DNA of 64,000 bases from Leucoraja erinacea (taxonomy: Eukaryota): positions 372,001 to 436,000 of the forward strand of contig NC_073410.1 in assembly GCF_028641065.1 (NCBI RefSeq), given 5' to 3'. Positions 28,250-50,263 of this stretch are shown here, one piece after another. The translations under genes and the position numbers were made by a program. Position 1 is the first letter of the stretch, and every line of letters starts with the position of its first letter. Under the pieces are notes generated by a model, which worked only from the letters and a program-made list of their open reading frames with translations, was not told the origin of the DNA and ran no database searches.

Positions 28250-29757
28250 TTACTGTGTCCCCTGGCCGTTCTCTGTGGAAGCTGCTTCATCCTTGGTCTC
28301 AGTCTCTGTCACTGTTTCTTTACCATTCATTGGCTTGGTTCCTGAAGTTAACTGGCTCTCCCCTCCTGCTACTTTGGTGTCTGGCACTTTTGCCTTTTCA
28401 TCCTTGCCCATTAGCTTATCCTCAACCTGATCGCCCCCCTTCACCACCGATGCTCCCGTTACACCTTCACCTTCCTTTGTCTTAGAAATGACTTTTGCTT
28501 CAGCCTTTTGTTCAGAAATCTTTTCTTCAACCTTTCCTTCTGCTTTCTCTTCTTTCTTCTCTTCTGCCTTTTCTTCCACCACCTCTTCTGCCTTCCCTTC
28601 AGCTTTCTTCTCTTCTGCCTTCTCTTCCACCTTCTCTTCAGCTTCTCCTTTACTTCCTCCTTCTCTTCCCTTCTCTTTTCTCTTCCTCCTTTTCTTCAGC
28701 TTTATCCTTTACTTCCTCCTTCTCTTCCACCTTTACTTCCTCCTTTTCTTCAGCTTTATCCTTTACTTCCTCCTTCTCTTCCACCTTTACTTCCTCCTTT
28801 TCTTCAGCTTTATCCTTTACTTCCTCCTTCTGTTCCACCTTTTCTTCCACCTTCTCTTCAGCTTTATCCTTTACTTCCACCTTCTCTTCCACCTTCTCTT
28901 CCTCCTTCTCTTCAGCTTTTTGCTCTTCAGCCTTCTCTTCAACTTTCTCTCCATCTTTTATGTCAGCCTTTTCCTCTTCAGTCTTCTCTTTAACCTCCTC
29001 AACCTTTTCCTTTACTGCTTTCTCTTCAACCTTTTCTTTAGCCTCTTCATCCTTTACTTCAACCGTCTCTTCCTCTTTAAGCTTCTCTTCCTTTCCTTCA
29101 GCCTCATCCTCTTTGACCTCGTCCTCTTTGACCTCATCCTCTTTGACCTCGTCCTCTTTGACCTCGTCCTCTTTGACATCTTTGACCTCATCCTCTTTGA
29201 CCTCCTCCTCTTTGACTTCCACCTTGACCCCCTCCTCTTTGACCTCCTCTTCCACCTGTTCCTCCTCCTTCTCAACCTCTCCATCCTTTCCTACCTGATC
29301 CTCTTCTGCCTCTTCAACCTTATCTTCACCTGTATCCACTTCATCCTTTTGTTCTGTAACCTCCTCTTCATCTTTTTCCTCTTCTTCAACATCCCCCTTT
29401 GCCTCTTCTTCCCCGCCTTTATCTTCTACCTCCTCGGCTTCCTCTCCTTCCTCTGCAGCTTCTCCTGCTTCACTTGGTTCCTTGTCCACATCTCCCTCTC
29501 TTTCTGCTGCCTCGCCTTGTGTTTCTCCATCCTGACCCATCACTATCTTGTAATCAGATTCCAACTCTGCCATGTTAACTTCCTTGGTTGTTGCACTAAT
29601 GATTTCTTCTACAAACCTGTACTGAGGCATGACCTTTGTTGAGGTGGCTTTGGTCTTGGTTGGCATGTAGGTTGCATGTGTTAATGGCTGTGGTTTGTAA
29701 GTATATGTTGAGGGTGTGTAGTCACCGAATCTTGTCTCTTCCCCTTCAAGCAGTTTC
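28250..29757 (-). CDS. Gene A exon 3 ([10 protein letters not shown] + acidic tail)
   Basis: TTTGAAG| acceptor. Continues into ORF 28650-29666, then after a frameshift into ORF 28250-28630, ending TENGQGTQ*. Confidence 0.85.
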
Positions 29758-47670: not shown

Positions 47671-50263
47671 CTTCATTCGGGAAAGAGAAGTCACAGGTGA
47701 GACACAAATAAATCATTCTACCCATTGGGAGAAGGAACGAGAGCTGCAAGTTCAGGACCAGCTGTGGAACCTCCTGCTTAGCCTGCGCCATGTTAGTGGG
47801 CACCTATGGGCTGTGTTTAGGTGGGACTTCTGTGGCCACAGTATCACGGATAATTGATGATATTGTTTACAGTACATGTTCTAACGCTGCACCAACTAAT
47901 GTCATTGTTCCGGTCCCGACATCAATGAGTTACATTCTCTCCGCCTGGCTCCTGTTTTCATTTCCCACTCGACATTTGCCTTTCCTGTAACTTAGTTAGT
48001 GACCCGGGGGAGGGGGTGACGTGAGATTGTGTGCCCAGGGATTGTGTGTTTGGGGCGGGGGTCACTCCTGGTGCCGGGGTGGGTCGGGACTGTGGATCGA
48101 GCCGCACTGAGAGTCTCCCCGCCTCACCCGAGTCTCTGGTGATTTGAACTATTTCAGGATCAGTCAGTCCCCGTGAGCGCGGTGAGATTATATCGCAGTT
48201 GTGGTGAACGTTGATCTATTTACAGAGTCCCGCCGTCAGGTAAATGTTCTCACGGCTATTGGTCTTTGCAGGTTGTGTATAGGACGTGTTTAGACAGATA
48301 TGGACAAATGGGACTAGTGTAGATGGGCATGTTGGCGGGCATCAGTGAGTGGGGCCGTTATCTGCTGCAGCTTTAACCCCTTCATGTCTCGGCCCCACCT
48401 CATTGACTGGCGGGTAAATCTAATTAAATACCTTAAACCAAGGGCACGCCCCCTTATTGGCCTTTACATGTTTGAAAATCACCTCCAGAAATACTACTGT
48501 TGGTGACAGGTTTAGTACAAAGTGCTGGAGCAACGGCGGGTCTGTGGAGGGAATGGTCAGTCTGGCCGCTTGGCCGTTCCCTCCACAGAGGCTGCTTGAC
48601 CCGCTGGGTCCCTCCAGCACTTTGTGGTTTACACGACATTCCAGCATCTGCAGTTCCTCGCGTTTCCGCCGCACGTTCATCCCTTTAGGATTAAGCAGCT
48701 GGTGCCGGAGCCGGAGCCTCGCTTCACCGTGAGCGGTCGCGGGCAGCGGACAGCGCGGGGTTTGAGTTGCCCGGCTGGGCCACACGTACCTGTACGAAGC
48801 AATCTCCACGTCCAAGGCCGTCTTGACATTGAGCAGGTCCTGGTACTCACTCAGGTGTTGGGACATCTCACATTTTGTGTTTATCAGTTCGTGCTCCAGC
48901 TGTTGGATGGTGCCCTGGAAAACAAGAGCGGTTCTTGTAAAGTGACTGGTGCAGGAGCTGGGGCGGCGCAGCGAGGGGAGGGGAGGGGTCCCGCCGTGGG
49001 GTGCAGGACCTGGGGCGGCGCGGGGAGGGGGGGAGGGGAGGGGGGACGCGGGTCCCGCCGTGGGGGTGCATATGGGGGGGGAGGGGGGGGGGGGGGGGAG
49101 GGGAGGACGCGGGGCCGTGGGGATGGGGATGGGAGGGAGGGGGGACGGGAGGACGGTCCCGCCGTGGGGATGGGGATGGGAGGGAGGGGAGGGGAGGGGA
49201 TGAGGGGACGCGGGTCCGGCCATATGGGGGGGGGGGGGGGGAGGAGGGGGGGACGCGGGTCCCGCCGTGTGGATGGGGATTGGGGGGGGGGGAGGGAGGA
49301 AGGGGTCACCTGGTACTGCAGCAGCTCGGAGTCGTGCCTGTCCTCAATGTCGCTCAGCTGCCGGTCCAGAGACTGTTTGGTTCCCCGCGCCGCCTCCAGC
49401 TCCACGGTCTTGGAGTGAAGTTGGCGCCGGAACTCTCCGATCTCCTGCCGGCTGCGTTGCAGCGCCTCGCTGTTGGTCTGAGCGGCCTGTCCGAGCGCGG
49501 CGGCCCTGAAGCGGAACAACTCCTCGGCCTGGCCCAGGTCGGTGCCGGTACAACCCTCCATCTGAGCTCGGATCTCCCGCAACTCCGCCGCCAGGCCGGG
49601 TTTGGGCGAGTGTGTGAGTGGAGGCGCCTGGATGTGGCCGCGTAAGTCGGACACCTGGTCGTGGTGGGTGTCCCGTAGCGCGACCACCTCTTCGACCAAC
49701 GCCAGCGCTCTCTTGTCCAGTTGCAACTTAACTCGCCGCGAATCCTCGCTGTCTTTCATGTAGCCACGGGCTTCCACCTCCAGCCGTTGCCGCATCTGCT
49801 CCTGGTCCTCGCACCGAGCCGCCACTTCCCGCAGCCGCTCCTCAAGCCGCTCCCGCTCCAGCTGAGCCTCCGCCTTTTGCCACTCCGTATCCCGCACCAG
49901 GCGGCGCATCTGATCGAGCTCCGGGCCGTAGACGGCGGCCAGGCGGGACGGCGAGGCCTGCCGCTGCCTAAGCCGCCCCATCTCCGCCTCCAGCCCCCGG
50001 TTCTGCTGCTCCAGATGCCGGACCTTGTCGATATAACCGGCGAAGCGGTCATTCAGTCCTTGCATCAACTGCTTCTCGCTCATCCTTTCCGCCGGACCGT
50101 CCTGGGGGTAGTAGCCCAGGCCCGGGGTTATGTGCTGGGCTAGCCCGAGGCTGCGGGCGCTACGCCGGCCAGAGGTGCCGGACAGCCGCGGGACGGGCAC
50201 CGGGTCCCGGCCGGGCTCATACTGCATGTGCCGGTAGGGCAGCGGGTTCCAGGCGGAGCTCAT
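44651..50263 (-). CDS. Neurofilament (type IV IF, NEFM/NEFH-like) gene B, 3 exons, ~1365 aa, KSP-heptad tail (whole CDS span)
   Basis: [27 protein letters not shown] and [30 protein letters not shown]. 125-nt exon 2. NEFM-like [14 protein letters not shown] and C-terminal [16 protein letters not shown] motifs. Frameshifts within the repeat. Confidence 0.9.
44885..46398 (-). repeat. Coding 21-bp tandem repeat (~70 units; [28 protein letters not shown])
   Basis: Plus-strand unit GATAGTGGA(C/T)(C/T)CTTGTCCCC(C/A), with occasional 18-bp units. Confidence 0.95.
48790..48914 (-). CDS. Gene B exon 2 ([42 protein letters not shown])
   Basis: TTTTCCAG| acceptor, GTACGT donor, 125 nt. Confidence 0.92.
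48960..49305 (+). repeat. G-tract-rich degenerate tandem repeat in gene B intron 1
   Basis: Several recurrences of GACGCGGGTCCCGCCGTGGG separated by G runs. Confidence 0.75.
49310..50263 (-). CDS. Gene B exon 1 (318 codons)
   Basis: ACAACATGA start ([12 protein letters not shown]). Ends ELLQYQ|GTGACC. Confidence 0.92.

Follow-up and report, generated by a model that had tools for sequence, protein, structure and literature searches.

Neurofilament proteins set the thickness of nerve fibers. Genes for intermediate filament (IF) proteins of type IV are defined by a small number of introns, all of which lie where coil 2 ends; NEFM has three exons in this layout, and NEFL and NEFM are neighbors in the human genome. 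In the human IF set presented by PMC8733776 in the legend to a figure, the neurofilaments are NEFL, NEFM, and NEFH alone. According to the side-arm model, as outlined in the accessible part of PMC13214616, the rods of NF-M and NF-H are built onto a core of NF-L or internexin, and their tails extend as charged side-arms that keep filaments apart. Here we describe two additional genes of this family, A and B, in a 64,000-nucleotide stretch of the Leucoraja erinacea genome (contig NC_073410.1, forward-strand positions 372,001 to 436,000; hereafter the window, in whose coordinates positions are given). The two genes almost certainly belong to a separate lineage, here termed NF-X, which is a real, undescribed subunit lineage of the known neurofilament family and not a new kind of system. 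NF-X is probably a third long-tailed neurofilament lineage beside NEFM and NEFH, located on the VDAC2/INA (10q-type) chromosome, older than the split between cartilaginous and bony fishes, arranged in tandem, and presumed to provide side-arms in neurons.

Each of the described relatives shares some features with NF-X. NEFM resembles it in the IF rod, the three exons, the long Glu/Lys tail, and a (K/R)FVEEI box in that tail. It differs in belonging to another clade on another chromosome and in the full form of the box, which reads HKFVEEIIEET in NEFM and Y(K/R)FVEEI(I)(S/T)xTT in NF-X. In turn, NF-X forms a tandem array, the heads of A and B give no match to Filament_head, and the lineage has no amniote member among the matches listed. 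NEFH is similar to gene B in its long tail, large block of Lys-Ser-Pro (KSP) motifs, and divergent rod, whereas it differs from NF-X in forming a separate clade and in lacking the common tail box; both are present in Coregonus (P0191, P0079). The teleost NEFH-clade genes of Coregonus and Hippocampus (P0191/P0308, P0200) carry 11-22 KSP motifs and show that bony fishes possess NEFM, NEFH, and NF-X together. The 7-residue GDK(S/G)P(L/Q)S unit of gene B is absent from all other sequences of its clade. Lamprey NF-95 and the NF-M-like proteins of lamprey and hagfish fall inside the long-tail group; their position outside the NEFM, NEFH, and NF-X clades has modest support (86/71). INA (alpha-internexin) and neff1/XNIF have a type IV rod like that of NF-X, but short tails and separate clades of their own; INA appears to share the NF-X chromosome in bony vertebrates. 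The neff1-labelled protein P0188 groups with NEFL, outside the long-tail group.

The separate standing of A and B is derived from rod phylogenies. A profile search run alongside three homologue searches brought the collection to 305 proteins, of which 267, including the A and B models, contained enough rod to be placed in a tree; one homologue search supplied the best 120 of 331 matches and the profile search the best 150 of 2126 (187 at E <= 1e-30). With FastTree, A and B fell inside a 126-member clade apart from NEFM (43 sequences) and NEFH (8). IQ-TREE analysis of 55 chosen rods (LG+C20 PMSF) recovered the NF-X clade with support of 100/100, NEFM with 100/99, and NEFH with 100/100, and united all three with the cyclostome NF-M-like sequences in a 100/100 group. 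Approximately unbiased (AU) tests, run with short searches under LG+G4 and hence a simpler model than that of the IQ-TREE tree, reject the placement of A and B with skate NEFM (p = 6e-6), of cartilaginous-fish members with cartilaginous-fish NEFM (p = 2e-4), and of NF-X with INA (p = 5e-7) or NEFL (p = 3e-61). The reading of gene A as alpha-internexin was likewise rejected on the basis of the INA test and of its tail, which is about 490 amino acids long compared with the short tail of INA.

The true NEFM of Leucoraja was identified as XP_055518142.1. According to the protein records, it is encoded on a 15.58-Mb contig and gene A on a 19.86-Mb contig. Its exon-1 rod shares 75-85% identity with bat and shark NEFM (85% with that of the white shark), compared with 46-49% for A and B. 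The original prediction had proposed that the two genes are not orthologues of NEFL, NEFM, NEFH, or INA and form a separate clade, which the rod trees and AU tests bear out; they do not group with NEFM or NEFL, and a distinct skate NEFM exists on another contig. It had also called for the true NEFL/NEFM locus to be found in this genome: NEFM was recovered through the protein records, but skate NEFL was not located there. The NF-X and NEFM clades each contain both cartilaginous and bony fishes, from which it follows that the duplication separating them predates the split of these groups.

Members of NF-X are found in Callorhinchus, sharks, rays, Polypterus, Erpetoichthys, sturgeon, gar, bowfin, and many teleosts, as well as among sarcopterygians in Latimeria (two genes), Pleurodeles, and Ambystoma. 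The 26 clade sequences that were new in the profile search comprise eight that were named and 18 that lie inside teleost subtrees. No frog, reptile, bird, or mammal sequence falls in the clade among the matches listed, which is weak evidence for absence from frogs and amniotes; more diverged tetrapod copies could escape, given the great length of the branch leading to salamanders (1.19). A loss in mammals may be surmised from the same matches together with the known human gene set.

Database names for this lineage are mixed. In line with the earlier expectation that related genes exist in fishes as unnamed NEFL/NEFM-like models, members carry the RefSeq names NEFL, NEFM-like, NEFH-like, alpha-internexin, vimentin, and peripherin. 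The zebrafish gene name si:dkey-27m7.4 is attached to carp and coelacanth UniRef entries inside the clade (P0233, P0198/P0307). This link rests on entry labels, the zebrafish protein itself being outside the sequences in the tree, and by projection the same label has also been given to P0309, a lamprey protein that is no member of the clade. No published description of the lineage was found in the full-text literature, subscription papers being beyond reach, and no such gene is named in the accessible portions of PMC10758125, PMC10683209, PMC4448529, bioRxiv 10.1101/2023.05.19.541431, and PMC10115646. The sole mention of si:dkey-27m7.4 in the searchable literature is one row of a zebrafish larval proteomics study, annotated ‘axon development’, in the available part of PMC5854894. 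Older fish neurofilament biochemistry or zebrafish single-cell marker tables may mention the lineage, and the NEF alignment in the supplements of PMC2453138, a source available in part, could contain an unnamed member. Dre13B and TruSc338 from that supplement were considered as earlier sightings of NF-X and rejected; by eye, they resemble a separate NEFL-like group (with P0264, P0271, P0295, and P0299) that clusters with lamprey P0055/P0250 and not with canonical NEFL. The zebrafish copy of this group is labelled chromosome 13, and the group may represent a further lost paralogue that stems from the paralogon of NF-X.

Both genes are encoded on the minus strand and, as had been described, are co-oriented three-exon IF genes with identical intron positions: exon 1 ends in ...YQ (phase 0), exon 2 is 125 nt long, and intron 2 interrupts YRKLLEGEE after YR. 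Both introns lie where coil 2 ends, which is the type IV layout, and this arrangement is confirmed by RNA in gene B. Gene A (32535-28250) consists of exon 1 (31549..32535), encoding the head and most of the rod in 329 amino acids; exon 2 (31077..31201), which encodes the end of coil 2, has AG/GT borders, and matches the NCBI model P0001; and the coding part of exon 3 (28250..29757), which contains the tail box and a Glu/Lys-rich side-arm and, read in the downstream frame, terminates at 28250. An AATAAA motif follows at 27987..27992, as read from the sequence. Exon 1 is 100% identical to Leucoraja erinacea XP_055517564.1, annotated as ‘LOW QUALITY PROTEIN: alpha-internexin-like’. Gene B (50263-44651) has an RNA-supported exon 1 (49310..50263; 318 amino acids that span the head and the greater part of the rod), exon 2 (48790..48914), and an exon 3 coding part (44651..47670) that comprises the tail box, an acidic side-arm, a repeat array, and a conserved C-terminal segment (…INGLD…), and whose downstream frame terminates at 44651. 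A TATA-like box is found upstream at 50304..50312, with RNA depth starting in the bin 50190-50329, and two candidate AATAAA motifs lie downstream at 44276..44289. The Pfam domain Filament (PF00038) is matched above cut-off by exon 1 of A (E = 6e-68) and of B (E = 3e-54). Neither head matches the Pfam domain Filament_head, for which the skate NEFM head scores 45 bits. The ESM Atlas returned generic filament clusters only, without range information.

The tails of the two genes differ in composition. That of gene A has a net charge of -91 and contains no KSP motif. Among its 54-nt repeats is a 59-nt unit (28648..28706, minus strand) that breaks the frame as assembled; the NCBI model bridges this break and is flagged LOW QUALITY, and the C-terminus read in the downstream frame resembles ray orthologues. 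In the tail of gene B, an acidic region, 417 residues long and with a net charge of -54, is followed by a 21-nt tandem array of about 1.5 kb (44890..46398, minus strand) with some 70 units of consensus GDK(S/G)P(L/Q)S. When cut at unit anchors, the array gives 69 segments: 59 of 21 nt, six of 18 nt, one of 63 nt, and three that break the frame (22, 32, and 22 nt, starting at 45719, 45490, and 45293; net +1). Read in the unit frame, it contains no stops, 29 KSP, 50 K(S/G)P, and 26 S-x-x-x-S-P motifs, with a net charge of -11 over about 500 residues; the literal frame retains 16 KSP. The Ser codon of the units varies mostly at its third base. The segment after the array is open and matches the C-termini of shark, ray, and chimaera B genes. 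In stingray and manta, the B orthologue carries just one QSGERS(P/L) unit where skate B has the array, and none of the 117 clade-binned sequences besides B has more than three KSP motifs. The array is therefore an in-place expansion in the skate line, and its resemblance to NF-H is convergent because B orthologues lack the KSP block. In other members, separate tail repeat expansions occur, namely of KESPEPK type in Heptranchias A and of ETPEAK type in Pristiophorus C. A Pfam match of the B tail to LbR_Ice_bind falls in the low-complexity array and was dismissed as a repeat artefact.

Gene B is transcribed and spliced, which answers the concern that the genes might be untranscribed for this gene. 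As the more doubtful of the two, it was chosen for RNA mapping over 46410-50600, a span that ends before the repeat array. Both introns (395 and 1119 nt) are removed exactly as modelled in 4/4 runs (X1, X15, X19, X22). Reads skipping the two introns number 36 and 32 in X19, 13 and 18 in X22, and 4 and 1 in X15, while X1, whose status as RNA is a guess, provides one spliced contig per intron. The reads of X19 and X22 are strongly one-stranded, with a depth of about 10-90 in exons and mostly below 5 in introns, bar G-run artefacts in intron 1. In these two runs, exon 1 has a depth of 10-35 and positions 46410-47669 a depth of 35-92, with coverage remaining high right up to where the array starts. 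Depth in X15 is about 40-fold lower, making expression of gene B sample-dependent. Among the 40 letter differences listed between RNA and assembly, 28 isolated exonic ones were classed and eight clustered and four intronic ones dropped. The ratios of synonymous to non-synonymous changes are 12:2 in the rod, 8:5 in the tail, and 0:1 in the head; this pattern fits a working gene. For gene A, a search of sequencing runs found it in none recorded as RNA; 0.41 and 0.38 of its sequence words occur in two runs guessed to be RNA, values that were not counted as evidence.

The motifs that had been put forward as shared and derived are all present in A and B, but most proved to be specific to cartilaginous fishes or common to NEFM, as counted on the clades of the tree. 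The start-of-rod motif QGLNDRFAG[FY]I[DE]KV, taken without its last residue, occurs in 30/36 NEFM sequences. IRAQMEG is found in 21 of the 27 cartilaginous-fish sequences and in no other clade member, and RHDS[DE]L..YQ in three sequences, all from the two skate genes. The clade-wide marker is instead the tail box [YF][KR][FY]VEE..[ST].TT, present in 105/112 tailed clade sequences and in none of 36 from NEFM. Its NEFM counterpart, [HQ][KR]FVEEII.[ED]T, shows the reverse distribution (32/36 NEFM, 0/112 NF-X). The proposed likeness between the two boxes holds for the common (K/R)FVEEI, which is missing from the three tailed NEFH sequences; the full boxes are distinct.

The surroundings of NF-X bear on its origin. 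Human INA, VDAC2, and WASHC2 are on 10q. NEFM and NF-X lie on different contigs in 9/9 species having both (Leucoraja, Carcharodon, Pristis, Heptranchias, Heterodontus, Cetorhinus, Hypanus, Mobula birostris, and Acipenser ruthenus), and INA and NF-X apparently on the same contig in 6/6 bony vertebrates having both (Siniperca, two Pampus, Chaetodon trifascialis, Cottoperca, and Pleurodeles), with contig identity judged by proxy in both counts. In a fused Aldrovandia model (P0092), an NF-X member runs together with a WASHC2-type CAP-ZIP_m protein. The part of PMC2453138 that was available assigns the families NEF and SAMD8 to the Hsa4/5/8/10 paralogon. Together, the separate NEFM contigs, the INA linkage, the fused model, and this paralogon favor an origin by genome duplication, with gene order seen in skate only. 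The suggestion that the genes are ohnologous and NEFM-related is upheld insofar as NEFM is the best-scoring sister and the duplication predates the split; the sister node itself is weak. We consider it somewhat more plausible than the alternatives that NF-X is the genome-duplication sister (ohnologue) of NEFM, which is likely rather than shown given the weakness of that node.

The tandem arrangement that had been proposed is real, but it is ancient and not specific to skate, since the AU test rejects A and B as sisters (p = 5e-4). Two to three NF-X genes per contig occur in Carcharodon (three), Heptranchias, Hypanus, two Mobula, Callorhinchus, Latimeria, and Erpetoichthys. Sharks carry types A, B, and C, while the skate window carries B and A; an older Callorhinchus model (P0318) fuses a B-type gene and then a C-type gene. 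The array dates to at least the chimaera-elasmobranch split. A Scyliorhinus model (P0019) is also fused and consists of B with a C-like tail fragment. In 3/3 sharks with A and C (P0009/P0013, P0017/P0015, and P0010/P0012/P0021), exon-1 rod identity amounts to 92-98% for paralogues compared with 78-83% for orthologues, whereas the last 100 residues are 27-28% identical between paralogues and 44-71% between orthologues. The heads, which are encoded by the same exon as the rod, are 39-56% alike between paralogues, and this difference means that the two models do not share one exon. At the protein level, these comparisons, in which heads and tails track orthology, suggest gene conversion of the shark A/C rod as the simplest reading.

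By analogy with NF-M and NF-H, NF-X probably has a side-arm role in neurons. The A and B rods would co-polymerize with NF-L or alpha-internexin, and their disordered tails would project as charged side-arms that space the filaments and help set axon caliber. Gene A would supply a constitutively acidic arm without KSP. The repeat block of gene B, near-neutral as translated, would gain charge when proline-directed kinases phosphorylate its KSP motifs, as in NF-H; primed sites are possible at its 26 S-x-x-x-S-P motifs, with the kinases suggested by motif shape. A fuller scenario, to which we give somewhat less than even chances, holds that three long side-arm lineages existed at the start of jawed vertebrates, that NF-X was a tandem cassette whose rods were homogenized by gene conversion as heads and tails diverged, that in skates one copy acquired an NF-H-like arm switchable by phosphorylation, independently and through an about 70-fold expansion of a single S-P motif, and that the lineage was lost before amniotes.

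Several observations weigh against the interpretation of NF-X as a third side-arm lineage allied to NEFM. The tree joining NF-X and NEFM is the best under both models (AU p = 0.74), but its support is weak (87/84), and the alternatives NF-X+NEFH (p = 0.38) and NEFM+NEFH (p = 0.07) survive the AU test. Skate rods are fast-evolving, which may imply altered assembly: exon 1 of B is 58% identical to its stingray orthologue, compared with 85% between skate and shark NEFM. Contig assignments are a mere proxy for chromosome identity. The gene B array contains no S/T-P-x-K/R sites, and phosphorylation of the NF-M KSP motifs is said, in the title of one study, to be unnecessary for radial growth. Both tails are frame-broken as assembled, a feature absent from the original prediction. 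RNA support is confined to gene B and excludes its array, so that gene A is a sequence model, and the runs come without tissue labels, leaving neuronal expression as a presumption. Given the surviving topologies, it is possible, though rather unlikely, that the same lineage is sister to NEFH or began as a local long-tail duplicate that later moved beside VDAC2. The window has no NEFL-type partner beside A and B, though human NEFL and NEFM adjoin, and the VDAC2 adjacency is known from skate only. This option must nevertheless accommodate the best tree, the box that NF-X and NEFM have in common, and an INA linkage that fits an 8p/10q paralogon. The view that A and B are NEFM duplicates of skate or cartilaginous fishes, or alpha-internexin as named by NCBI, would explain the database names, the exon layout, and the common start-of-rod motif; it is close to untenable in light of the AU rejections and the separate, dissimilar skate NEFM.

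Two further possibilities concern function rather than ancestry. The proteins could be neurofilament-derived IFs that now act outside axons (in glia, electric organ, muscle, or elsewhere) with their long tails as spacers or linkers. The unlabelled runs, the roughly 40-fold spread in depth between them, and the divergent rods and heads are compatible with this idea, but NF-X nests within neuron-specific subunits, and the ‘axon development’ entry, although an annotation and not a test, points the same way; we regard a role outside axons as improbable. Only slightly better are the chances that the frame breaks of gene B are real, in which case the array would be an unstable minisatellite leading to an off-frame tail or decay, with KSP incidental. 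Three of 69 segments are not multiples of three, the B branch is long (0.45 in IQ-TREE), and the array is outside the RNA span. Yet 66 of the 69 segments keep the frame, including the six 18-nt units, and the absence of unit-frame stops, the third-base variation at Ser, the orthologue-matching C-terminal segment, the rod variant ratio, and the KSP motifs left in the literal frame all speak for a working tail. A comparable break sits within a repeat of gene A, and it is quite likely that the breaks are consensus errors in repeats.

If NF-X is a neurofilament lineage as preferred here, the count of neurofilament subunits changes for fishes and salamanders, which are the main models of axon caliber and regeneration. 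Were the loss before amniotes true, their axons would use a subunit ignored by mammalian models. The mixed database names blur orthologous relationships, and in fish with neurofilament mutations they could mask compensation. Comparison of skate gene B with the single-unit ray orthologues offers a natural test of whether such KSP arrays have arisen more than once and of what they contribute, and the zebrafish label si:dkey-27m7.4 makes function directly testable. Since single lineages often lose an old paralogue, the surprise is limited.

In the window, A and B lie downstream of a plus-strand VDAC2 gene, with which gene A converges tail-to-tail. Human VDAC2 is flanked by SAMD8 and COMTD1, and human NEFL and NEFM are on 8p, the same arm as VDAC3. 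The VDAC2 coding region (14030..18821, plus strand) has VDAC motifs across its exons and serves as the synteny anchor. Its largest exon (17274-17498) scores 150.6 bits against VDAC2 (chains 4bum/7nie/9eih) and 122.7 bits against VDAC1, in agreement with the adjacency originally noted. No third IF gene of the shark C type and no NEFL-type gene was detected in the window by tblastn and seven group hidden Markov models in six frames, a search that did not reach into its six N-gaps of 160-581 nt. A Pfam scan of 130/210 flank and spacer open reading frames, which short exons would escape, gave no SAMD8, COMTD1, or other neighbors.

Other features of the window were also recorded. A CpG island at 8780-10050, flanked by short tandem repeats, contains a probable VDAC2 promoter, and a probable first non-coding VDAC2 exon lies near 9200-9360, ahead of the frame beginning at 14030. 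Pfam matches to repeat elements (GIY-YIG, ALKBH8_N-like, and RVT_1) occur at 5150-5566, 6157-6699, and 57464-57754. A GC- and CpG-rich patch without a Pfam match is found at 34400-34800, about 2 kb upstream of gene A, and is possibly regulatory. The spacer between A and B contains a 13-nt satellite of about 88 copies (39799-40977).

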